Shown in pieces: positions 1,420 to 59,387 of a stretch of DNA of 64,000 nt (the stretch's first letter is position 1; each line of letters opens with the position of its first letter). Made by a program: the position numbers and the translations under genes. The notes under the pieces were generated by a model. The model did not search any database, was not told where the DNA came from, and saw nothing but the letters and a program-made list of their open reading frames with translations. The stretch comes from an uncultured Actinomycetota bacterium (lineage in GTDB: Bacteria > Actinomycetota > Actinomycetes > Actinomycetales > Microbacteriaceae): positions 524,061-588,060 of the forward strand of contig CAVQUZ010000001.1 of NCBI GenBank assembly GCA_963716965.1, given 5' to 3'.

Positions 1420-3730
1420 CGCGGCACACCGTCCGCGGGTCCGGCTGGGGGAGACCGCGGTCCGCGTCGCGTCGTTGCTCACCGTGCTGTGCGCCGCGAG
1501 TGCGATCGCGCCGCTCGTCACCGGGCTCGCATGGACGCTCGTCCCGGTGCTGGCCGCGGCCTTCGCCGTGACGGTCGTCGCGATCGCGTCACGGCTCGGC
1601 ATGCCGCCGATCCCCGCTGGCATCGCCGCGCTCGCCGCGCTCCCGCTGTTCGCGGTCGCGGACGCAGGCGGCGGCAAGGGCCTGCTCTGGGTGCTGCCGT
1701 CGGATGCGGCGGCACGGGCCGTCGACGCGGCGCTCGCCGCGGGCGGGAACCAGATCGCGACCGATGCGGTGCCGACCATCCCGTCGACCGGACTGGTGCT
1801 GATCATCGCGCTCGGTGTCGCGGCCGCCGCGGTCGTCGCCGACGTCGTCGCCGTCGGGTACCGCCTGCCGCTAGGCGTCGTGCCGGTCGCCGGCGCGATC
1901 GTGATCGCGCCGGGTCGGATCCTGCCGGTCGGCATCGCGTGGCCGGCGCTCGTGGCCACGGGGATCGCGCTGCTGCTGCTGCTCGCCGCCGACCGCCGCC
2001 GGGCAGGTCACCGCCCGCATCCGGCAGCGCTCGCCGCCCTCGTCGCCGGCTCGCTCGTCGTCGCCGCGCTCGGCACGACCGTCCTGCCGGTGCCCTCGGC
2101 CGCCGTGTCGTCGGGCAACGGTGGCCTCATCGGGCCGGGAGCGGACCCGCTCCTGAAGCTCGGCAGCGATCTCAGGCAGGGCGCGGCCACGGATCTGCTT
2201 CGGATCACGACGACGTCCACCGCACCGGCCTACCTGCGCCTGGCGGTCCTCGAGCAGTTCAGCGGGCAGACGTGGCAGCCGAACGACGCGGGGTTCACCC
2301 AGCTCACCGACGGCGCCACGGCACCGCACGCCTCAGGTACCGACACCGCCGGCTCCCGCGGCGTCAGCACCACCGTGGACGTCATCAACGCAGCGGCCGT
2401 CGGCCGATGGCTGCCCCTGCCGTATCCGACGACGACGGTCAGGGGACTCAGTCAGGTCGCGGGCTTCTTCTGGGAGAACCGCGGCCTGACGGTCGAGCGC
2501 GGCGCGACGAGCACGCCGGTCACCGGCTACACCGCATACAGCCTCGAACTGAAGCAGACCGCCGACCAGCTCAAAGCGGTCACGGGCACGCCGGCTCCCG
2601 CCTTCGACGACGCATCCCTCAGCCTGCCGGCCAAGGTGCCGTCCGTCATCACGCGGACGGCCCGTTCGTGGACCAAGGGCGCGACGGGACCGTACGCCGA
2701 GGCCCTGGCGATCCAGAACCACCTGGCCGGCGGTGACTTCACCTACGACGTCAACGCGCCCGTGACTCAGCACTTCGACGGTGACGGCCTCGCGGTCATC
2801 GCGAAGTTCCTCTCCGTCAAGGCCGGCTACTGCGTGCATTTCGCCTCGACCATGGCGGTCATGGCTCGCATCCTGGGCATCCCCTCCCGTGTCGTGGTCG
2901 GCTACCAGCCCGGCACGAGCACATCCGTCGCCGGGCGGGTGGAGCAGGTGGTCTCGTCCAACGACCTGCACGCCTGGCCCGAGCTGTACTTCGGCGGAGT
3001 CGGCTGGGTCCGGTTCGAGCCGACGCCCGGACGCGGTGTCACGCCGAGCTACGCCCCGCTGCCGGTGTCGGCCGGCGGACTCGTCACCGGCCAGACGTCG
3101 GGCGCGACGCCGGGCGCGTCGGCAGCACCCAGCGCCAGGTCCAACGTCGAGACCCCGCAGACCGCGGCCGAGGCGGCGAAGCAGCAGCACGCCGCAGCGG
3201 GGGCGGGGCTCACCGCGGCCGCCGTGCTGCTCGGCGTGCTGCTGATCGGCGCGGTGCCGTTCGTCATCCGGCGCCTGCGCCGCCGCCGCCGCCTCGCCGC
3301 CGTGCGCACGAGCGGATCCGCCGCCTCCGGCTGGAACGAGGTCATCGACACGGCGACCGATCTCGGACTCCATCCGCCCGGCCGGGCGTCGCCCCGAGCC
3401 GTCGAAGCGGCCCTGGCCGCCGAGGTCGGAGCGGACCCCGCACTCACCCGACTGCGGACGGCGTACGAGGCGAGCGCCTACGGCGCCGAGACGTGGCGCA
3501 TGCAGTCGGGCGATGTCGCCGCGGTGCTCACCCGGATGCGCGGTGCGGCACCGGCCGGCCGGCGCGTCGCGGCGGCTGTCGCACCCCGCTCCCTCCTTGG
3601 TACGATCGGCGGGTCGCGACTGGCGTTCAGGTGGTCACCACCGGGGAGCGACGAGACCACGAGAGCCGCACGCCTGGGCCGCACGACCGCACCCCGTCGC
3701 CCGTCACCCAGGAACAGGAGTCGGCAATGA
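1412..3730 (+). CDS. Transglutaminase-like domain membrane protein (DUF3488/TGase family)
   Basis: 772-aa ORF overlapping the DUF58 stop. It has a multi-TM N-terminus and a TGase core Cys/His region ([29 protein letters not shown] ... [21 protein letters not shown]). A late TM segment is followed by an RRLRRRRR stop-transfer stretch. Confidence 0.8.
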
Positions 3731-5034
3731 CCGATCTTCGTGCCAGCACCAGCCCGTCGACAGCGGCCGCCTTCTCGGCGCCGCTCTCGGAGGTCGACCC
3801 CGAGATCGCCGAGGTGCTCGCCCTCGAGCTCGGCCGTCAGCGCAACACGCTCGAGATGATCGCGAGTGAGAACTTCGTGCCGCGCGCGGTGCTGCAGGCG
3901 ACGGGCAGCGTCCTCACGAACAAGTACGCCGAGGGCTACCCCGGCCGCCGGTACTACGGCGGATGCGAGTTCGTCGATGTCGCGGAGGAATTGGCGATCG
4001 CCCGCGCGAAGTCGCTGTTCGGTGCCGAGTTCGCGAACGTGCAGCCGCACTCCGGCGCGACCGCGAACGCGGCGGTCCTCGCGGCGCTCGCCGAGCCGGG
4101 CGACACCATCCTCGGACTGGAGCTCGCGCACGGGGGGCATCTCACCCACGGCATGCGGCTGAACTTCTCCGGCAAGCTGTACACCGCGACTGCGTACGGG
4201 GTCGACCCGAACACCTTCCGCATCGACATGGACACGGTCCGTGACGCCGCGCGCGAGCACAAGCCCTCGGTGATCATCGCGGGCTGGTCGGCCTACCCAC
4301 GGCAGCTCGACTTCGCGGCGTTCCGCGAGATCGCCGACGAGGTCGGCGCGAAGCTGTGGGTCGACATGGCGCACTTCGCGGGACTCGTCGCCGCCGGACT
4401 GCATCCGTCCCCGGTCCCGTACGCGGACGTCGTCTCGACGACCGTCCACAAGACGCTGGGCGGCCCGCGCTCCGGTCTCATCGTCGCGCGCAGCACCGAG
4501 TACGCCAAGAAGCTCAACTCGGCCGTGTTCCCCGGTCAGCAGGGCGGCCCGCTGATGCACGTGATCGCCGCCAAAGCGACCGCACTGAAGCTCGCCGCGA
4601 CGCCCGAGTTCGCCGAGCGACAGCTGCGGACACTGAGCGGCGCCCGCCTGCTCGGGGAGCGGCTCACGGCGCCGGACAGCCGGGCGGCAGGGGTCGACGT
4701 GCTCACGGGAGGCACCGACGTGCATCTCGTCCTCGCCGACCTCCGCGACTCGGCCATCGACGGCAGGCAGGCCGAGGACCGGCTGCACGAGGTCGGCATC
4801 ACCGTCAACCGCAACTCGGTCCCGTTCGATCCGCGTCCGCCGATGACGACCTCCGGTGTGCGCATCGGCACGGCGGCGCTCGCCACCCGCGGCTTCGGCG
4901 ACGCGGAGTTCACGGCGGTCGCCGACATCATCGCCCGCACGCTGCGGACCGACGCGGACCTCACCGCGCTGCGCGGCGAGGTCGAGGACATCGCGGCCCG
5001 CTTCCCGCTCTACGCAGGGCTCGAGGACTGGTGA
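3727..5034 (+). CDS. glyA: Serine hydroxymethyltransferase
   Basis: ATG at 3727 after a GGAG-like RBS. The protein matches SHMT throughout ([37 protein letters not shown], the PLP-lysine region [15 protein letters not shown]). Its stop overlaps the folD start. Confidence 0.95.
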
Positions 5035-5930
5035 CGGCCGTCGTCCTCGACGGCACCGCCACCGCGGCGGCCGTCAAGGCCGAGCTCGCCGAGCGGGTCG
5101 CCGCGTTGCGGGCCGCCGGTCACATGCCGGGTCTCGGCACCCTGCTGGTGGGAGACGATCCCGGGTCACGCGCCTACGTCGCCGGCAAGCACCGCGACTG
5201 CGCGGACATCGGCATCGAATCGATCCGGATCGACCTGCCGGGCGACGCCTCCACCAAGGACGTCCTGGACGCGATCGGCCGCCTGAACGCCGACACCGCG
5301 GTCACGGGCTTCATCGTGCAGCTGCCGTTGCCCGCCGGCATCGACGAGCAGGCGATGCTCGAGGCCATCGACCCGCTGAAGGACGCCGACGGGCTGCATC
5401 CGCTCAACCTCGGCCGGCTCGTGCTCGGCGTCGACTCGCCGATCGACGGTCCGTTGCCCTGCACACCGCTCGGCATCCTGCAGCTGCTGCACCGCGCCGG
5501 GGTGCCGATCGCCGGCAAGCACGTCGTGGTCATCGGCCGCGGGCTGACGGTCGGCCGGCCGCTCGGGCTGCTCCTGTCCCGGAAGGGCGTCGACGCCACC
5601 GTGACGCTCGCGCACTCGCGCACGACCGACCTGCCCGGACTCGTCGCGCAGGCGGACATCGTCGTCGCCGCGGTCGGCGTGCCCGGTCTCGTGAAGCCCG
5701 ACTGGGTGAAGCGGGGGGCCGCGGTCCTCGACGTCGGCGTGACGCGGGTCGTCGACCCCGCGACGGGCAGGGCGAAGCTGCGCGGCGACGTCGATCAGGG
5801 GGTCGCCGAGATCGCGGGCCACCTGTCACCGAACCCGGGCGGCGTCGGCCCGATGACCAGGGCGATGCTGCTCGCCAACGTCGTCGACGCCGCCGAGCGC
5901 CTGCTGGTCTCGACCGGGACCTCGGCATGA
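5031..5930 (+). CDS. folD: Bifunctional methylenetetrahydrofolate dehydrogenase/cyclohydrolase
   Basis: GTG at 5031 in a GTGA overlap with the glyA stop. 300-aa protein with FolD motifs ([63 protein letters not shown]). Confidence 0.95.
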
Positions 5931-10278: not shown

Positions 10279-10743
10279 ATGGCCGTCATCGTCGCGGGCG
10301 TCACCGGTCCGCACGCGAGTGCAGTGGTCGGCGTCGCCGCCGAACTCGCTGCGGCGCTCGATGCGTCTCTGGCGTGCGTCTGGGTGGACGTCACCAGGAT
10401 TCCGATGTCGGGCGTCGCGTGGTCGATCCCGATCGACCCGGAATCGGACGACGCGGGCGAGCCGCAGTTCCCGGCCGATCTGACCGAGCAGATCGAGGGG
10501 GCGCTGCACGGGCTGCCGATCCGGTGGACCGCGCATGCCGTCACCGGCGACACGGCGCTGTCGATCATGCGCATCGCCGACGACGTCGACGCCGCCCTGA
10601 TCGTCGTCGGGGCCCGTGACAAGGGTGCGCGCGCGGCGTTCCGCGAGTTCGTCGAAGGGTCGGTCGCGGTGTCGCTCGCCCACCGGCAGTTCCGACCCGT
10701 GGTCGTCGTGCCGACGAACCCCGAACGCGCGGGCCACGCGTGA
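10279..10743 (+). CDS. Universal stress protein (UspA family)
   Basis: 154 aa with a C-terminal UspA ATP-binding-like signature (ALIVVGARDKGARAAFREFVEGSVAVSLAHRQFRPVVVVP). Its TGA overlaps the GTG of the next gene. Confidence 0.8.
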   Translation: MAVIVAGVTGPHASAVVGVAAELAAALDASLACVWVDVTRIPMSGVAWSIPIDPESDDAGEPQFPADLTEQIEGALHGLPIRWTAHAVTGDTALSIMRIADDVDAALIVVGARDKGARAAFREFVEGSVAVSLAHRQFRPVVVVPTNPERAGHA

Positions 10744-11160
10744 GCGACGCGCCGCCCCACGCCCGGCCGGCACTCATCGCACTCGTCGTGCTGGGCGGTG
10801 CCGCCGGCACCACGGTCCGCGCCGCCCTGCAGGCGGCGTTCCCCGCGACGGGTGGCGTCTCGATCGCGACGATCGCCATCAACGTCTCCGGCGCGTTCGC
10901 GCTCGGCTGGTTGCTCGAGGGCCTCGGCCGCCGTGGACCGGACAGCGGCCGGTCGCGTCTCGCGCGGCTCGGCATCGGCACCGGCGTGCTCGGCGGCTAC
11001 ACGACCTACAGCACCCTCGCGGTCGACACGTCGACGCTGGCTGCTGCGTGGACACGCGCAGCTCGCGGCACTCGTCGGTCTCGGCACCGTTCTCGGCGGC
11101 CTCGTCGCCGCGGTTGCGGGCATCGCACTCGCGGCGCGCACGGCGCCCACCGCGACGTGA
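10740..11160 (+). pseudogene. crcB: Fluoride channel CrcB/Fluc, copy 1, with an apparent frameshift near 11035-11060
   Basis: The N-terminal 100 aa matches CrcB (LIALVVLGGAAGTTVRAAL...TIAINVSGAFALGWL...GGYTTYSTLAVDT) in frame 0. The expected last TM (GHAQLAALVGLGTVLGGLVAAVAGIALAAR) is in frame +1 and ends at 11160. Frame 0 instead reads an Arg-rich nonsense stretch. Confidence 0.6.
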
Positions 11161-33696: not shown

Positions 33697-35258
33697 GTGG
33701 ACGGCGTCGGTGGCGGGCCGCCCGGCGACGCGGTCTCGGCCGTCGCGGAGTCCGAGATCGACGCCGCGCTCGAAGGCGTCCTCGTCGCCGCCGATCGCCT
33801 GCTCGGTGCCGGATACAGCGCGGTCGCGGACATCACCGCTCCCGGTGGCGCCATGCGCGCGGCGCACCGGCACCTCGGCGCGGAGCACATCGCACTGCTC
33901 GAATCCGGCTTCCGACTCACGGGACTCATGGATCGGCTGCTCGACGCGACCGACCTCGAGGACCGAGCCGACCCGGGTGCCGCAGGCGACGACCCGCCGC
34001 TGCGGGTGATGGCGGTTCCGGTCAGGTGGGCGGGTGCGGCTCGGGGCGCTCTCGTCGTGGCTGCAGTCAGGTCGACCCCGTTCACGGAGGACGACGCGGC
34101 CGTGCTCGGCTCTCTGGCGGCGACCGCGGCGGTCGCGTTGGGCTACGCCGAACTGCGCGCCGCCGCACGCCATCGACAGGCGTGGGCCGATGCATCGGCC
34201 GAGACGTCGGCTGCGCTGCTCACCGGCGAGCTCGAGGACCCGGCGGGATTCCTCGTGGCACGCCTCCGCGCCGTCGCCGACGACGCGTACGCGTCCGTCA
34301 TGCGTGTCAGCGACGGCCGGCTCGGCGTCGCGGGCGTCATAGGGCTGGACGGTCTCGGCGTAGGCGACGAGGTGGCCCTCAGGGATTCCGTGGCGGGCAT
34401 CGTCCTCGAGTCGCGACAGCCCAGACGCACCGATGCCGGGTCCCTCACGTCGACGGCCACCGAAGGTGCCGGGGGCCCCCTGATGGTCGCGCCGATGCGC
34501 TCCTCGGAGGGGGTGATCGGTGTGGTGGGGCTGGGACGGCTCGCCGGCGCCCCGCGCTACTCGACCGTCGAGCTCGGGCACTTCGCCGACTTCGTGGACC
34601 ATGCCACCGTCGCGCTGCTCCTGGCGGAGGCGAGGGCGGACCGGGACCGTGGCCTGCTGCTCGAGGATCGCGCCCGCATCGCCCGCGATCTGCACGACAC
34701 CGTCATCCAGCAGTTGTTCGCCGCCGGTCTCGAATTGCGGGCGACCGCCGCGGACGTGGCGGATGCACGGGTGCAGGCCGGCGTCCGGCACACGGTGACG
34801 CTCATCGACGCGTCCATCAGCCGGATCCGGACGGCGGTGCTCGCGATCTCGGCGGATCCAGCACACGGGTCCCTCCGGCACCGGATCCTGGACATCGTGA
34901 GCGACCTGCGGCGCGAGTTCGCCGAGCCCCCCGAGCTCCGGTTCGAGGGACCGATCGAACTCGTCTCGGACGGCGGCCTGGACGACGACCTCGTCGCGGT
35001 GGTGCGGGAGGCGTTGACCAACGTCGCACGGCACGCCGCTGCCGCGCGCACCGGTGTCCGCATCGCGGTCGTCGGGGAGCGGATCCGCGTGGAGGTGTGG
35101 GACGACGGGCGGGGTATGCCGTCACGACCGGAGCGGCGTGGGCTCGCGAACCTCGCCGAACGCGCGGCGCACCGCGGCGGCACATTCACCGTCGACAGCG
35201 CGTCGGGCACGACCCGTGCGGGTGGACCGTGCCGCACGGCACTGCGAGTGCGGCGTGA
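33697..35258 (+). CDS. Sensor histidine kinase with N-terminal GAF domain(s), HisKA_3 dimerisation and HATPase_c (DevS/DosS / NarX-like); 3' end ambiguous
   Basis: GTG after a GGAGG box. A GAF region is followed by HisKA_3 (RARIARDLHDTVIQQLFAAGLEL with the phospho-His) and HATPase (LVAVVREALTNVARHA ... VWDDGRGMP ... GLANLAERAAHRGGTFTVDSASG). The reading frame has no stop until 36351. A TGA in frame 0 overlaps the RR start as GTGA, implying a local frame problem. Confidence 0.7.
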
Positions 35259-35907
35259 GCGCGCCGATCCGCGTCTTCCTCGTCGACGACCACGAGCTCG
35301 TCCGCCGGGGCATCGCGTCGTTCCTCAGATCGGCTCCCGACATCGTCATCGTCGGCGAGGCGTCGACCGGAGCCCAGGCCACGAGCCGGATCGGCGTCAT
35401 GCTGCCCGACGTCGTCCTGCTCGACGTTCGGCTTCCCGATCGCAGCGGTATCGACGTGTGCCGAGAGCTCAAAGTGCGTTCGCCGCAGGTCGCCTGCATC
35501 ATCGTCACGGCATACGACGACGACGCCGCGATCCTCGCCGCGGTCGTGGCAGGCGCCGCGGGTTACGTGCGGAAGGACGTGGCCGGCAGTGCCCTCGTGG
35601 ACGGTATCCGCGCAGCGGCCGCCGGGCGCTCGCTGCTGGACGCGGCCCTCGTCGAACGCGTCAATCGACAGCTGCGGGACGCACGCCTCGGCCACGCGCG
35701 TCTCGCGGACCTCAGCCGACGAGAGGCCGAGGTGCTCGGGCTGATCGCGGACGGGCTGACGAATCGCGAGATCGCCCGCACGATGTCCCTCGCCGAGAAG
35801 ACGGTGAAGAACTACGTGTCCAGCCTGCTCTCGAAGCTCGGCCTGCGGACCCGGACCCAGGCGGCCGTGCTGCGCACGACGGCGTCGGCGACCGACAGCC
35901 CGCCGGA

Positions 35908-35914
<7 letters not shown>
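35255..35914 (+). CDS. LuxR/NarL-family response regulator (REC + HTH)
   Basis: The REC domain (IRVFLVDDHELVRRGIASFLRS ... VVLLDVRLPDRSG) is followed by a LuxR HTH (LSRREAEVLGLIADGLTNREIARTMSLAEKTVKNYVSSLLSKLG). Confidence 0.9.
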
Positions 35915-37005
<1,091 letters not shown>

Positions 37006-39220: not shown

Positions 39221-41772
39221 CTACGACCGTGCGCTCACGAGCTCGTCGGCGTGCGTGCCGGGGAGCGGATGCGTCCGCTCGAGCTGACGCGCCCTCGACG
39301 TCGACGTCCGGGCAGGATCCGGTCGAGCCACTTCGGGAACCACCAGGCCGAGCGGCCGAGCAGGTGCATCGCCGCCGGGATCAGCAGCATCCGCACGATG
39401 AACGCGTCGGCCAGTACGCCGAACGCGAGTCCGAAGCCGATCGGCCGGATGGTCGGCGGAGTCGGAGAAGATGAAGCCCGAGAAGACCGAGATCATGATG
39501 ATCGCTGCCGCGGTCGACGACCGGTCGTCCCGCGTGCAGGCCCCGCTGCACGGCGAGCTTCGCGCCGGCGCCGTGCACGTACGACTCGCGCATGCCCGAC
39601 ACCAGGAACAGCTGGTAGTCCATGGCGAGGCCGAACAGGATGCCGATCTCGATGATGGGCAGGAAGCTCAGGATCGGTGCCGGGATCGTGCACCCCGAAG
39701 ATCTGGTGCAGCCAGCCGAACTGGTAGATCGCGGTCAAACCCCCGAACGTCGCGAAGAGCGACAGCACGAAACCCGCGGTCGCGGTGATCGGCACGAGGA
39801 GGGACCGGAACACGATGATCAGGATGATGAGCGAAAGGCCGACGACCACGACGAGGTAGAGCGGCAGGACGCCGGCCGAGGCTCTCGGAGATGTCGATGT
39901 TCGCGCTCGCGTTGCCGGCCACGCCCAGGGTCACGGCTTCCGGCGACTAGTCGTGACGGGGGAGAGGTCGCGCAGGTCGTGGACGAGGGTCTCGGTCGCT
40001 TCGGACGACGGGCCGCGTCGTCGGCAGGACCTGGAACGCGATGACCGTCCTGTCGGTGGACTGGCCGATCGGCAGCGACCGCGGCGACGTGGGACTGCGC
40101 GCGGATCTTCTCGCCGATCGTCGACCTCCAGCTGGAGAAGCGGTGTGCCCGTCGTCGCCTTCGGCAGGTCCGCGACGACGAGCAACGGACTGTTCTGGCC
40201 CGGCCCGAACGAGGCGGCCGTCACCTGGTACGCCTTGTACTGCGCTGGAGATCGACGGCTTCCGAAGAGCCCATCGGCAGGCCGAGCCGGATGTGCATTG
40301 CGGGCAGCTGCGATGACGCCGAGCACCGCCACGCCGGCGACGAGCGTCGCGATCGCCCGCCACGTCGCCATCGGCTTGGTCGGCACGCGAGTCGCATGCG
40401 GGTGGCCGATCGTCGGCGCGCTCCTTCTTGCGCAGCATGCGCATCCCCACGAGCGACAGCAGCGCCGGCGTGAAGGTGATGGCGATGAGCACGGCGACCG
40501 CGACGGCCAGCGCGCCGACCGTGCCCATGAGTCCGAGGAACGGGATGCCGGTGATGTTGAGGGCGAGCAGTGCGACGATCGACGGTCGAGCCCGCGAACA
40601 CGACCGCGTTGCCCGAGGTGCCATTGGCGAGTCCGATCGACTCGTGCACGGACATGCCCTGTTTCAGCTGTGTCCGGTGCCGGTTCAGGATGAAGAGCGA
40701 GTAATCGATGCCGACCGCGATCCCGAGCATCAGCGCGAGCACGGGCGTGACGGAGACGAACTGCGACGATGCTCGAGAACGAGAGCGCGGCGAGGAGTGC
40801 GACTCCGACCCCGAACAGTGCGCTGATGAGCGGAAGCACCGCGCCGATGACGGTCGAGAGGATGACGAGCAGCACGATCGCGGCGACCAGTAAGCCGACG
40901 ACCTCGCCGGGGCCGATCACCGATGGCACACCCTCCGCGATGTCGTTCGAGACGTAGACGTGCACGCCGCCGATGGCGGCATCGGCAGCCCTGGCCTCGA
41001 TGGCGGTTTTCGTCGCCTGCGGCACCTCGGTCGTCGCTTTCGTGAACCGGACGGTCGCGATGGCCGCAGTGCCGTCGGTGGAGACCAGCCGGACGTTCGT
41101 CGAGAGCGCCAGCAGCCGGGTGCCGAGCGCCAGCTTGGTCTCGTTCGTCGCGAGCCTCGTCCGGTTCGAGTCGATCGTCTTCTGACCGGCGTCGAGGGCC
41201 TTCTGCTGCGCATCGATCTGCGCCTGGCCCGCATCGATCCGGGCCTGCACGAAGGCGAGCTGACCGGCTGCCTCGGCCTGCGCCCTCTGTGCGTCGAGCT
41301 GCTGCTGCGCCGCGTCCAACCGCTTCCGGCCGGCGTCGAGCTTCGCCTGCGCGGCGTCCAGCTGCTTCTTGCCGTCGGCGATCTGTTTCGTACCGTCCGC
41401 GGTCTGCTTCCGCTGATCGTCGAGTTTCCGCTGTGACGAGAAGGGGTTCACGGTCGCCCGGACACCCGGCAGGTCGCCGATTTCGGAGAGGAGCGACTCC
41501 ACGCCGGCCTTCTGCGCGCTCGTGAAGGCGTTCCCGGTCGACGTCTCGAACACGATGCCGCCCGAGCCGCCGCTCGCGGACGGGAACTTCTTCGCGAGCT
41601 CGTCGGTGACCTTGCTCGTCGCTGTGCCTGGGATCGAGATCGACGACGAGATCGAGCCGCCGAACAGCGCGTAGCCGACGCCCGCGAGCGCGAGTATCAG
41701 CAGCCACGAGACGATGACGGTCCAGCGACGTCGGGCCGCGAATCGCCCGAGTCGGTAGAGGAGGCCTGCCAT
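39221..41772 (-). pseudogene. MMPL-family (RND-type) transporter, disrupted by at least seven frameshifts
   Basis: The N-terminal 338 aa is intact (coiled-coil periplasmic domain, LPLISALFGVGVALLAALSFSSIVAV). Conserved MMPL segments then appear in alternating frames (MLALMLGIAVGIDYSLFIL, ALLALNITGIPFLGLMGTVGALAVAVAVLIAITFTPALLSL, LVVGLSLIILIIVFRSLLVPITATAGF, MDYQLFLVSGMRESYVHG, MISVFSGFIFSDS), separated by Arg-rich nonsense. Confidence 0.75.
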
Positions 41773-41791: not shown

Positions 41792-42430
41792 TCAGTCGGG
41801 GGCGTATCCGGAGCGGATGCGCACGAGCAGGCGGTCGAGCAGTGCGGACCATTCGGCCAGTGACGCCGGGTCGAGGCGTCCGCCGGTCGTCCGGATCCAG
41901 TGCTCGGCGAGCACGGCGATGCCGTGGATCAGCGAGCTCACGAGCAGTTCGGCGTCGAGCGGGTCGACGCCCGGGTTCCGGCGCTCGACCTCGGCGAGCA
42001 GTCGGTCGCCGACTCGGGCGAACGCCGCCTCCGACAGGTCGAAGGCCCGTGCGGTCGAGGTGTCGGGGCCCCCGAGGATGCGCAGGAGTGCGACGATCGC
42101 GTCGGGCAGATGCGAGGCACGGATCGCGGTCTCGAGTTCGTCGAACATCGAGGACGGGGTGCCGTCGCCGACCGGGATCTCGGACACCGTCGTCAGGAAG
42201 TCGTCGACGATGATCGCGAGCACATCGGCGCACACCGTCAGCAGCACGTCGTCCATGCCGGCGAAATGGTTGAAGACCGTCCGTCGGGCGACGTCCGCCT
42301 TCGCAGCGAGATCGTCCACGCTGAATGACGGACCACCGCGCTCGTCGATGAGTGCGCGGGCGGCGTCCAGGATCGCGTCCCGATGCCGCAGCTTGAGCGC
42401 CAGACGGCGATCGGGCACGGCGAGGGTCAC
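41792..42430 (-). CDS. TetR/AcrR family regulator, first gene of the tetR-mmpL operon
   Basis: 212 aa with an N-terminal HTH (FSVDDLAAKADVARRTVFNHFAGMDDVLL). It ends 20 nt upstream of the MMPL start. Confidence 0.85.
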   Translation of the reverse strand: MTLAVPDRRLALKLRHRDAILDAARALIDERGGPSFSVDDLAAKADVARRTVFNHFAGMDDVLLTVCADVLAIIVDDFLTTVSEIPVGDGTPSSMFDELETAIRASHLPDAIVALLRILGGPDTSTARAFDLSEAAFARVGDRLLAEVERRNPGVDPLDAELLVSSLIHGIAVLAEHWIRTTGGRLDPASLAEWSALLDRLLVRIRSGYAPD

Positions 42431-42491
42431 AGGATGACACTAAGTGCATCGATGCACTCAGTGCACCGATGCGCGGGTGTGTCGTCCGAGA

Positions 42492-43950
42492 TCAGGCCTC
42501 CGTCTGCTCGAGCACCGCCTCCGCTCGACCTGGACCGCCATCGGCGAGGCCGCGGTCGATCGCGCCGCGAGACGCGAGCCACATGCCGATGCCGACCAGG
42601 AACACGATGACCTCGGTGACGGTCAGCGCCCAGATGATGCCGGCCAGCCCGAACCAGAGGTTGCCGAGAATCACGATCGGGATGAACAGGATGCCCTGCG
42701 CCATCGACATGACGATCGCCGGCGTCGCCCGCCCCGTGGCCTGGAAGAGCGACGTGATCAGACCGGTGAAGCCGTTCGCGATCATCGCCACGAGCTGGGC
42801 GGTGAGGATCGTGACGCCGATCGCGAGCACCGAGGGGTCGGCCGAGAAGGCGGCGAGCACCTGGTCGCGCAGCACGAAGACGGTCACGGCGAAGATCGAG
42901 GCTGATGCCGCCGACGGTGATCGCCGATGCGCGCAGCGCCGAGGAGAGACGGTGCCGGTCGCCCTTGCCGTAGGAGTAGGCGAGCAGCGGCAGCACGCCG
43001 AGCGTGACGCCCATCACCAGGAACTCCGGCACCTGGGCGATGCGGACCGCGACGCCCATGGCGGCGAGCGGGCCGTCGCCGTAGCTGGACCGCGAGGTTG
43101 TTGAGCACGAGCGAGGTGACGATCAGGAAGGCCGACTGCAGCAGCTCGCCGACGCCGACGCCGAAGACCGGCTTGATCACCGCGGGCGAGAGGGTGAACC
43201 AGCGCGGCGCGAGGCTGACGTGCTCGCTGTGCCGCTGCAGCCAGAAGACGAAGTAGGCGACGGTGACGCAGGTTCGCGAGACCGGTCGACAGCGCGGCGC
43301 CGGCGACTCCCCAGTGCAGCACCAGGATGAACAGGACGTCGAAGACGAGGTTCGCGATCGTCGAGGCGATGAGCCCGATCATCGCCTGACGCGACGGCGC
43401 CCTCGGCCCGCACGAGCTGCTCGAGGCAGAACGCCGCGGCGAGCACGGGGACGAAGGCCAGCATGACGCGCGACGAAGGCGCTCGTCGCGGGGAACGGCG
43501 CCGGCATCGGCGCCGAGCAGCGGTCACGAGCGGGTGCAGCAGCAGCAGGCCGGCGCCGCCGAGCACGGCGCCGACGATCACCGAGCCCCACACGGCGAAC
43601 GACGAGACGTGCTTGATCTCGCCGGCCTTCGCCGGGTCGTGCTCCGAGGCGCCGAGCAGGCGGGAGATGAGCGCGCCGCCGCCGACGCCGAACACGCCGC
43701 CGATCGCCATCACGAGGCCGAGCAGCGGCGAGCCGAACGTGACCGCGGCGAGCAGGACCGTGTCGTGCAGTGAGCCGATGAAGCCGGCGTTGATGACGTT
43801 GTAGACGGCGCCGACGATCATCGCGGCCGCCATCGGCACGCAGAGGTGCACGAGGGCGCGGATGATCGGGGCCGCCGACAGGTACCAGCGGTTCGTGCCC
43901 GGCAGGTCGAGGGGTGGGGCGGAGGCGGATTCGGCGTTCGAGGCGGTCAT
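42492..43950 (-). pseudogene. MATE-family efflux transporter, disrupted by several frameshifts
   Basis: The N-terminal 140 aa is intact (PIIRALVHLCVPMAAAMIVGAVYNVINAGFIGSL). MATE segments follow in other frames (MIGLIASTIANLVFDVLFILVLHWGVAGAALSTGLAN, VFGVGVGELLQSAFLIVTSLVLNNLAV, MGVAVRIAQVPEFLVMGVTLGVLPLLAYSYGKGD, and the C-terminal FVLRDQVLAAFSADPSVLAIGVTILTAQLVAMIANGF...). Confidence 0.7.
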
Positions 43951-44051: not shown

Positions 44052-44501
44052 TTACCGGCTCGGGGGCGGCAGCTCCGCGGTGATCTTGTGCAACAGGGTG
44101 AGCAGGGTCTCCCGCTCGGCGGGACTGAGCGGGGCGAGGATCGTCTCGTCTGCCGCGATCATCGCGTCCTCGAAGCCGGCGATGAGTTCGGCGCCGGCCG
44201 TGGTCGCGTAGACGCGCTTGCTGCGCTCGTCGCCGTCCTCGGTGCGTCGTTCGACGAGGCCGCGCCGCTCGAGCCCCTGCAGGAGGCTCGAGACGCTCGC
44301 CGCGCTGGTGCGGCTCATCCGCGCGATGTCGCGCTGGATCGAGCCGGGGTTCTGGGCGAGATAGCCGAGCGCGAAGCCCTGCTCGAAGCTCAGTTCGCGC
44401 GCTCGGATCCAGTCCTCGGCGGCCTTCCGCTGAGCCCAGCCGATCCAGCGGAGCAGCCCGAGGCTGGTCGTGAAGTGCGGCTCCTCTGCGTCCATGGTCA
44501 C
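44052..44501 (-). CDS. MarR-family transcriptional regulator (upstream of the MATE gene)
   Basis: 149 aa with a wHTH (LSFEQGFALGYLAQNPGSIQRDIARMSRTSAASVSSLLQGLERRGLVERR). Confidence 0.85.
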   Translation of the reverse strand: MTMDAEEPHFTTSLGLLRWIGWAQRKAAEDWIRARELSFEQGFALGYLAQNPGSIQRDIARMSRTSAASVSSLLQGLERRGLVERRTEDGDERSKRVYATTAGAELIAGFEDAMIAADETILAPLSPAERETLLTLLHKITAELPPPSR

Positions 44502-56976: not shown

Positions 56977-57987
56977 TCAGGCCTCCCGCGTCTTCGGTGA
57001 GCTCTCGAGGGTCTTCGCCGGATCGCTGGTGACCACGCCGGCGAGCGCCGCATCGATGCGGGTCAACAGCTCGGCCGGGATCTCGACCCCGGACGCCTCG
57101 ACGTTCTCGGCGACCTGCTCGGGCCGGGACGCGCCGATGATCGCCGAAGCCACGTTGTCGTTCTGCAGCACCCATGCCACAGCGAGCTGTGCGAGCGAGA
57201 GCCCCAACTCGTCGGCGACGGGCTTCAGGTCCTGCACACTCGTGAGTACCTCGTCCCGCATCCACCGGCTGATCATGTTCGCGCCGCCCTTCGCGTCGGT
57301 GGCGCGGCTGCCTTCCGGCAGCTCGCCGCCCGGCAGGTATTTGCCGGTCAGGACGCCCTGGGCGATGGGGGACCAGACGATCTGCGAGATGCCCAGTTCC
57401 TTCGATGCGGGCACGACCTCGCCCTCGATCACGCGCCAGAGCGCGGAGTACTGCGGCTGGTTCGAGATCAGCTGGAAGCCGAGCTGCTTCGCCAGTGCGC
57501 TGCCGGCCCGCAGTTGGTCGGCGGTCCACTCGCTCACCCCGATGTAGAGGGCTTTGCCGTGTCGGACCACGTCCGCGAACGCCTGCATCGTCTCCTCCAG
57601 CGGCGTCTCGTAGTCGAAACGGTGCGCCTGGTAGAGGTCGACGTAGTCGGTCTGCAGCCGGGAGAGCGAGCCGTCGATCGACTCCATGATGTGCTTGCGG
57701 GAGAGGCCGACGTCGTTGTGGCCCTTGGGCCCGGTCGGCCCGAACACCTTCGTGAAGATCTCGATCGACTGGCGTCGCTCGCCCTTCAGGGCCTCGCCGA
57801 GCACCGTCTCCGCCGCGGTGTTCGCGTACACGTCGGCGGTGTCGAACGTGGTGATGCCTGCCTCGATCGCGGCGTGCACGCACGCGAGCGCGGCGTCGTT
57901 CTCGACCTGCGAGCCGTGCGTCAGCCAGTTGCCGTATGTGATCTCGGAGATCTTGAAGCCGGAGTCACCGAGGTAACGGAATCGCAT
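56977..57987 (-). CDS. Aldo/keto reductase (Kv-beta/Tas-like subfamily)
   Basis: MRFRYLGDSGFKISEITYGNW ... FDTADVYANTAAETVLGEAL ... IGVSEW ... IIGASRPEQVAEN. 336 aa. Confidence 0.9.
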   Translation of the reverse strand: MRFRYLGDSGFKISEITYGNWLTHGSQVENDAALACVHAAIEAGITTFDTADVYANTAAETVLGEALKGERRQSIEIFTKVFGPTGPKGHNDVGLSRKHIMESIDGSLSRLQTDYVDLYQAHRFDYETPLEETMQAFADVVRHGKALYIGVSEWTADQLRAGSALAKQLGFQLISNQPQYSALWRVIEGEVVPASKELGISQIVWSPIAQGVLTGKYLPGGELPEGSRATDAKGGANMISRWMRDEVLTSVQDLKPVADELGLSLAQLAVAWVLQNDNVASAIIGASRPEQVAENVEASGVEIPAELLTRIDAALAGVVTSDPAKTLESSPKTREA

Positions 57988-58105
57988 GCGAAGGGTCCTT
58001 TCACGGAGTCGGCGAGTACCGGCACCGATGATCGAGGCTAGCGACGACGGATGGCACGAATCTGAGCGCACGAGCGGGCGGGCGCGGTGGGGCTACCTTC
58101 TCGAC

Positions 58106-58318
58106 ATGCCTCACTACGTCACGCTTCCCGAACTCGGGCGACGCCGGATCGTGCTCGAGAACGACTCCACCGCACTCGGCGGCCGCCTCGCCGAGCAACT
58201 CCGCGACGGTGGGACGGAACCGGTGGAGTTGCGGTTCTGGGGAAACGACCTGCCCCGCTCGGTGTCGGTGCGCCCTTCGGCTCTCGCCTGGTGGGCGGTC
58301 GAGTACGAAACCGAGTAG
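58106..58318 (+). CDS. Small hypothetical protein (70 aa)
   Basis: ORF MPHYVTLPELGRRRIVLENDS... lies between the AKR gene and the tRNA. It has no RBS-like signal of note. Low confidence. Confidence 0.3.
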   Translation: MPHYVTLPELGRRRIVLENDSTALGGRLAEQLRDGGTEPVELRFWGNDLPRSVSVRPSALAWWAVEYETE

Positions 58319-58350
58319 GCGGCCGCCGCATCGGACCGGCGCTCGCTTCG

Positions 58351-58422
58351 TGGGCCCCGTCGGGCTCGAACCGACGACCCAGGGATTAAAGTCCCTTGCT
58401 CTACCAACTGAGCTAGAGGCCC
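58351..58422 (-). tRNA. tRNA-Lys(UUU)-like gene with a 6-nt anticodon loop (CTTTAA); no encoded CCA
   Basis: The minus-strand sequence GGGCCTCTAGCTCAGTTGGTAGAGCAAGGGACTTTAATCCCTGGGTCGTCGGTTCGAGCCCGACGGGGCCCA folds into a cloverleaf. It has a 7-bp acceptor stem (one G-U), D arm GCTC/GAGC, anticodon stem AGGGA/TCCCT, T arm GTCGG-TTCGAGC-CCGAC and discriminator A. Canonical Lys-UUU loops are CTTTTAA, so one T appears to be missing. Confidence 0.75.
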
Positions 58423-58544: not shown

Positions 58545-59174
58545 GTGAGCGACTCCTTCCACCGTCCGGTGCGGGTGCCGACCGAGCACTTCGACTTCAT
58601 CGCCGGGGGTGCCGACCCGGCTTCCGTGAGCCGCTCCGCGCACGAGACAGCCGCGGCGCTCGTGCGCCGTGTCCGTGCAGACCCTGACCCCGTCGTGGTG
58701 GACCGACTGGTGGTGTTCGCCGAGCGCGAGGGGATCGACGCCGTCGCGGAACTCTGGTCGCGGGCGAGCGCGCATTCGCTGCCGGGGGCGTTGTGGCGGG
58801 TGTACCTGGCGCGGGAGATGGTGCGGGGCGATCCTGCATCGGTCGCGCTCTTCTTCGAGCGGGGGGTGGAGCGCCTGGAGTCCATCGATCCGGTCGTCGC
58901 CGGTGCGCCGCGGCCGGCCGGCCCCGACGAGATCCTGGCCGTCGCGGACGAGATCCTGCGGGGTGTGTTCGACGGTGATCTCGCGGTCGCGCTGGACCGC
59001 GCGGCGTCGTTCTGCCGGGTCACCGCCGCCGGCTGCACCGACATCGCCGATGCGTCGGACGCGACCGAGCCGCAGCGGGCATCCGAACTCACCCGACGGG
59101 CCGCCAGGCTCGCCGCGATGGCCGCTGACCTGAGCGTCTGCGCGGTGCTCTGGCGAGAGGGCGCTTTAGACTAG
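58545..59174 (+). CDS. Hypothetical protein (209 aa), no recognisable domain
   Basis: A GTG-start ORF with consistent codon bias, Asp/Ala/Arg-rich and predicted helical. It is convergent with pstB. Confidence 0.5.
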   Translation: MSDSFHRPVRVPTEHFDFIAGGADPASVSRSAHETAAALVRRVRADPDPVVVDRLVVFAEREGIDAVAELWSRASAHSLPGALWRVYLAREMVRGDPASVALFFERGVERLESIDPVVAGAPRPAGPDEILAVADEILRGVFDGDLAVALDRAASFCRVTAAGCTDIADASDATEPQRASELTRRAARLAAMAADLSVCAVLWREGALD

Positions 59175-59387
59175 ATGCCGGTCGTTCGCGGCCACGCCGG
59201 ACCGCAGTAACCCCGGGCTCCATATATAGCCGCTTCGAGCGGCCTCGCGCCGAGAGGCGTTTCTGCGGTCCGGCACTCCTCTTCCGCCACATCGGCGCCT
59301 CGCCGGACCTGGCCCGCGCTTCGGCAGGACTCACGCACGTCCTGCTGGAGTGCGCGGGGGCCGTGCTCCGGGGGTCGCCGAGCGGGA

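Follow-up and report, generated by a model that had tools for sequence, protein, structure and literature searches.

The window, i.e. the whole analysed stretch of 64,000 nucleotides, contains a single tRNA gene (64 kb searched with ARAGORN), which is a positional orthologue of tRNA-Lys(UUU) and whose anticodon loop is one T short. Most probably this is an ordinary tRNA-Lys(UUU) whose deposited sequence lacks the T owing to an indel error. In the cell, the anticodon loop would most likely consist of the canonical seven nucleotides C32-U33-U34-U35-U36-A37-A38, and the product, probably encoded by a single copy and decoding AAA (and AAG), would be the elongator tRNA-Lys(UUU) of a bacterium of the Microbacteriaceae similar to Amnibacterium.

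The tRNA gene and its orthologues

The gene is located at 58351-58422 on the minus strand, a strand left unstated in the preliminary description, spans 72 nt and lacks an encoded CCA end. Its assignment is based on Rfam, ARAGORN and the alignment to the tRNA-Lys(UUU) of Amnibacterium and Naasia. The match to the Rfam tRNA family (RF00005; 60.0 bits, E 1.7e-10, 58351-58422, minus strand) lies above the gathering score of 29 and fully covers model positions 1-71, the sole irregularity being a consensus position absent from the anticodon loop. ARAGORN, which the preliminary description had proposed to run on the window, detects the gene as well (58350-58422, minus strand), reported as 'tRNA-??? 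anticodon (tt)'; the loop yields an anticodon of two bases only. Written as RNA, the gene has the sequence GGGCCUC UA GCUC AGUUGGUA GAGC A AGGGA CUUUAA UCCCU GGGUC GUCGG UUCGAGC CCGAC GGGGCCC A. All stems (7, 4, 5 and 5 bp) are regular, the variable loop comprises 5 nt and the discriminator is A. A single-sequence fold prediction contains the acceptor, D and anticodon stems, with a mis-paired T arm.

The anticodon stem consists of AGGGA (5' strand, 58392-58396, minus strand), identical to that of Amnibacterium sp. CER49, an ENA MAG (L006) and seven metagenome contigs, and of UCCCU (3' strand, 58381-58385, minus strand), defined by sequence and alignment. The loop in between reads CUUUAA as written, 6 nt (58386-58391, minus strand; TTAAAG on the plus strand), against CUUUUAA, 7 nt, in the orthologues. 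The site of the 1-nt deletion is the T run at 58388-58390 (AAA on the plus strand), with three T against four in orthologues according to the alignment and to a regular-expression count of run lengths. Rfam and the alignment thus agree with the preliminary description, which had reported a tRNA-Lys(UUU)-like gene with a 6-nt loop CTTTAA inside a perfect AGGGA/TCCCT stem, and the count of exactly one T fewer than in the orthologues bears out its statement that the loop is one T short of CTTTTAA. The discriminator A73 and the anticodon are identity elements for LysRS. An A is present at 58351, the final base of the Rfam match; the written loop CUUUAA does not provide the 7-nt loop of tRNA-Lys(UUU) with U33, UUU at positions 34-36 and a purine at 37.

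A divergently oriented gene of 209 aa (58545-59174, plus strand) served as the synteny anchor for orthology of the tRNA. Its product, labelled 'DNA-directed RNA polymerase subunit beta' in the NCBI records of relatives, has no match to any Pfam family. Homologues share 55-78% identity, and the closest named ones are from Amnibacterium (73-75%), followed by Naasia, Leifsonia and Labedella. The loci encoding seven homologues of this protein were compared for the position of the tRNA. In A. endophyticum, Amnibacterium sp. CER49, A. kyonggiense (three assemblies), Naasia sp. and the ENA MAG, a tRNA-Lys(UUU) stands beside the 209-aa gene in divergent orientation; ARAGORN calls it tRNA-Lys(ttt) in the loci of the relatives, and pstB is also nearby where the flank is available.

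The comparator set comprised 14 loci carrying the tRNA, from Amnibacterium, Naasia, one MAG and seven metagenome contigs. For the metagenome scan, the tRNA body of the window served as query, with three or four T permitted. The loop is CTTTTAA in all 14 loci, the 6-nt form occurs in none of them, and the 209-aa gene adjoins the tRNA divergently in 13. All seven metagenome copies possess four T and are 98.7% identical to the tRNA of the window; the gap is the sole difference, the body being identical throughout. Six of these contigs have the 209-aa gene beside the tRNA, and the seventh stops at the tRNA. The gene of the window is accordingly orthologous to these genes in position and sequence, and it is identified as tRNA-Lys(UUU) because its positional orthologues all carry CTTTTAA, some of them with an identical anticodon stem, as in Amnibacterium sp. 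CER49. With the elongator tRNA-Lys(UUU) of Amnibacterium and Naasia it shares the genomic position, the cloverleaf and the discriminator A, and it differs from them in a loop of 6 instead of 7 nt, with one T fewer.

The surroundings of the tRNA vary. The locus of A. flavum (L010, 2050-3000), the only one of those compared that lacks the tRNA at this place, possesses the 209-aa gene and pstB without a tRNA within approximately 3 kb upstream, and the tRNA-Lys(UUU) of this species must be located elsewhere in its genome. In all relatives (L004-L011, ~3800-5300), the 209-aa gene and pstB are separated by the genes of an ECF sigma factor and a RskA anti-sigma factor; the window lacks this pair and has only a spacer of 213 nt (59175-59387). 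Between the aldo/keto reductase gene and the 3' end of the tRNA, a putative gene is formed by an ORF of 110 aa without Pfam family (57986-58318, plus strand). A scan for promoters and terminators around the tRNA gave no matches. Far from the tRNA, the window contains a ZMP/ZTP riboswitch (Rfam RF01750, 51.3 bits) at 3606-3686 on the plus strand, upstream of an ORF that starts at about 3742.

Distribution of the six-nucleotide loop

For a wider search, one genome per species was scanned in 185,579 bacterial and archaeal species with a pattern of a Lys-like D arm, any anticodon stem, a CTTTAA loop, a GGGTC variable loop and a GGTTC T arm. Three matches were obtained, in a Flavobacteriaceae MAG, in Tigheibacillus jepli and in a Saprospiraceae MAG; no actinobacterial genome among the 185,579 species matched the 6-nt-loop Lys-like pattern. 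ARAGORN gives the identical "(tt)" call for all three. The names of two of the three matching contigs ("contig_21956_pilon", "tig01430158") are of the kind given by long-read assemblers and resemble output of Flye plus Pilon or of Canu. The Flavobacteriaceae MAG (L001, 7002-7151) carries two tandem copies of tRNA-Lys, 5 nt apart, of which one possesses TTTT and a D loop one base short, and the other a full D loop and a 6-nt loop with TTT. The 6-nt loop is sporadic rather than an inherited class, because the three matches are scattered in unrelated phyla.

Natural tRNAs with non-standard loops inherit their unusual loop length among relatives, which is not the case here. The 8-nt-loop tRNAs, e.g. 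the frameshift suppressors of the sufD type and the yeast mitochondrial tRNA-Thr, likewise deviate from the standard loop length, but their loops are enlarged and inherited, whereas that of the window is shortened and unconserved. Among the papers searched, nothing specific on six-membered anticodon loops was found beyond a general statement on loop size, according to which anticodon loop sizes are almost always standard (PMC5009743).

Lysine codons and single-base frame breaks

Among approximately 13,500 confidently framed codons of the window (G+C content ~70%), lysine is encoded 29 times by AAA and 176 times by AAG. AAA hence accounts for ~14% of the lysine codons and occurs in many genes, among them pstB, pstA, pitA and the gene of the aldo/keto reductase. 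AAA is read only by a tRNA-Lys with U34. The use of AAA thus calls for a functional Lys-UUU tRNA and makes a real loss of the conserved copy unlikely.

In the gene of a MalK/UgpC-like ATPase (35908-37005, minus strand), 10 of 11 lysines are encoded by AAA (Fisher p = 7e-9). This MalK/UgpC/MsiK-like ABC ATPase is a strong outlier in codon usage, with ratios of 10:1 for AAA:AAG, 8:4 for CAA:CAG and 8:9 for GAA:GAG, and with C preferred over G at four-fold sites (0.74 vs about 0.5 in all other genes). Neither of the two orthologues examined, from A. flavum (L019) and from an uncultured Amnibacterium (L020), shows the NAA bias, which is therefore specific to the copy in the window; the preference for C-ending codons is common to the A. 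flavum orthologue only. A paralogue of the ATPase (P0153) is 86% identical. The codon bias of this gene leaves the verdict on the tRNA unchanged.

Besides the lesion of the tRNA, at least nine single-base frame breaks are present in the window. According to a period-3 GC hidden Markov model of the window, all same-strand frame switches outside 39.2-43.95 kb coincide with stop codons and are therefore normal gene junctions. The breaks in crcB1 and in a histidine kinase (HK) gene correspond to short non-coding gaps in the model and were found by three-frame translation. The frame of crcB1 (10739-11130, plus strand) changes about 90 nt before its end. That of the GAF/HisKA_3 histidine kinase gene changes at 35215-35250 (plus strand), ~35 nt before the GTGA stop/start overlap, the canonical junction at which the gene of a LuxR-type response regulator (35237-35914) overlaps that of the kinase. 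Both single-nucleotide anomalies mentioned in the preliminary description (crcB1 and the HK 3' end) are consequently present in the window.

The remaining breaks are concentrated in two efflux genes, and ~59 kb are clean except for crcB1, the HK 3' end and the tRNA. The MMPL transporter gene (39238-41772, minus strand) is broken into at least five frame segments according to Pfam. Near 40763 and 40580, homologue residues continue without a gap from one frame into the next, and a +1 insertion in non-homopolymer sequence is the best explanation for each junction. For the N-terminal part of MMPL, nearly all database homologues are themselves partial (337-565 aa). The MatE efflux gene (42430-43950, minus strand) has four frame switches, near 43389, 43269, 43083 and 42896. 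A TetR gene beside MMPL (41792-42430) and a MarR gene beside MatE (44052-44501) are intact. Part of the lesions in MMPL and MatE could represent real gene decay. The assumption that all frame breaks are homopolymer errors was rejected, as the two well-resolved lesions of MMPL are +1 insertions outside homopolymers. The homopolymer-length spectrum does not differ clearly between the window and its relatives and provides no fingerprint of the sequencing platform.

Origin of the missing base

A 6-nt loop that is real and functional would make the gene a suppressor of UAA (ochre) with UUA as anticodon, or a doublet-decoding or -1 frameshifting tRNA. The loop C-U-U-U-A-A can be read with UUA at positions 34-36, the ARAGORN anticodon has two bases, and several genes of the window would need a frame correction. 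Such a function is nevertheless extremely improbable in view of the absence of the 6-nt form from the 14 relatives and its sporadic occurrence in the species scan; moreover, a six-membered anticodon loop is not known to accommodate the canonical U-turn and 3' stack. TAA is used as stop by 3 of 50 confident ORFs (38 end in TGA and 9 in TAG) and ends genes at normal lengths, e.g. MarR, without signs of avoidance or readthrough. Few genes are affected by frame breaks, these have no common slippery motif, and the two resolved ones are +1 insertions. The preliminary description had wanted the ochre-stop anticodon UUA ruled out, and this reading is unsupported and was rejected: the lesion is a deletion and not a U36A substitution, UUA would stand in a loop of 6 instead of 7 nt, and termination at TAA is normal. 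Ochre suppressors of the E. coli supG/supL type are derived from tRNA-Lys, carry the anticodon UUA by a U36A substitution and keep the 7-nt loop. The tRNA of the window resembles them in its tRNA-Lys(UUU) origin and in the letters UUA readable in its loop, but it has a base deleted where the suppressors have one substituted, and TAA is a normal stop here. That the three-T loop is real and belongs to the organism's only U34 tRNA-Lys is very improbable; a tRNA with a six-membered loop would in that case have to decode AAA, or suppress UAA or frameshifts. An origin of the lesion in imprecise site-specific recombination of an integrative element, with the anticodon loop of tRNA-Lys as att site, has next to no probability either, even though a gene for a phage-type integrase abuts or overlaps the 3' end of the orthologous tRNA in A. 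kyonggiense (L007/L008, 1458-2702), which marks the orthologous tRNA-Lys(UUU) as an integration site, and the sequence 3' of the tRNA differs in every relative. Within the window there is no second 3' half of the tRNA (searched as 37-mer or 22-mer with up to three mismatches), and the genes on its 3' side encode an aldo/keto reductase, PitA and EamA but no integrase; an integrase or att-site scar was rejected on these grounds.

A real deletion, either in a recently inactivated tRNA-Lys(UUU) pseudogene with an intact second copy elsewhere or as a population variant that entered the consensus, is unlikely. The intact remainder of the tRNA is as expected of a very recent lesion, and the multiple frame breaks of MMPL and MatE next to intact regulators form a pattern that could reflect gene decay in the lineage. 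The tRNA body, however, occupies one conserved locus in the relatives, without a second context among the 14 loci, and the Microbacteriaceae, whose tRNA genes number about 45-50, usually possess a single one for Lys-UUU. In addition, AAA is used more in the genome of the window than in relatives, and a deleterious lesion is unlikely to dominate the consensus of a population.

We infer that the deletion is an artefact and not a real mutation. One base would have been dropped from the TTTT run during sequencing, consensus calling or assembly, and the source would probably be a long-read contig of 1.36 Mb; the size of this contig and its lack of annotation suggest a long-read MAG. The single-base deletion, which the preliminary description had named as an alternative to a non-functional or unusual tRNA, is favoured because the 6-nt form is not conserved, AAA is in use and the window has many other frame breaks. 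Indel errors of long-read (nanopore or PacBio) assemblies offer a parallel in several respects: they include single-base homopolymer deletions, the window contains other frame breaks, contigs with assembler-style names are among the other 6-nt-loop Lys-like tRNAs, and the tandem tRNA-Lys copies of the Flavobacteriaceae MAG differ in length by 1 nt at separate places, the D loop in one copy and the anticodon loop in the other. The nine or more other frame breaks fit an imperfectly polished long-read consensus, albeit imperfectly. Counting against a sequence error, the indels resolved at other places in the window are +1 insertions outside homopolymers, unlike the loss of a T from a run, and four T are a short run for a classic homopolymer error. 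As the frame breaks are clustered and some possibly represent real decay, the argument from a noisy assembly is weakened.

The value of the finding lies in quality control of the window, whose deposited sequence carries single-base indels. The breaks of crcB1, the HK 3' end, MMPL and MatE are therefore unsafe as programmed frameshifts or pseudogenes without reads. The biological interest is small. Annotation pipelines, though, will drop or mislabel this tRNA, and the genome will then seem to be devoid of a Lys-UUU decoder.
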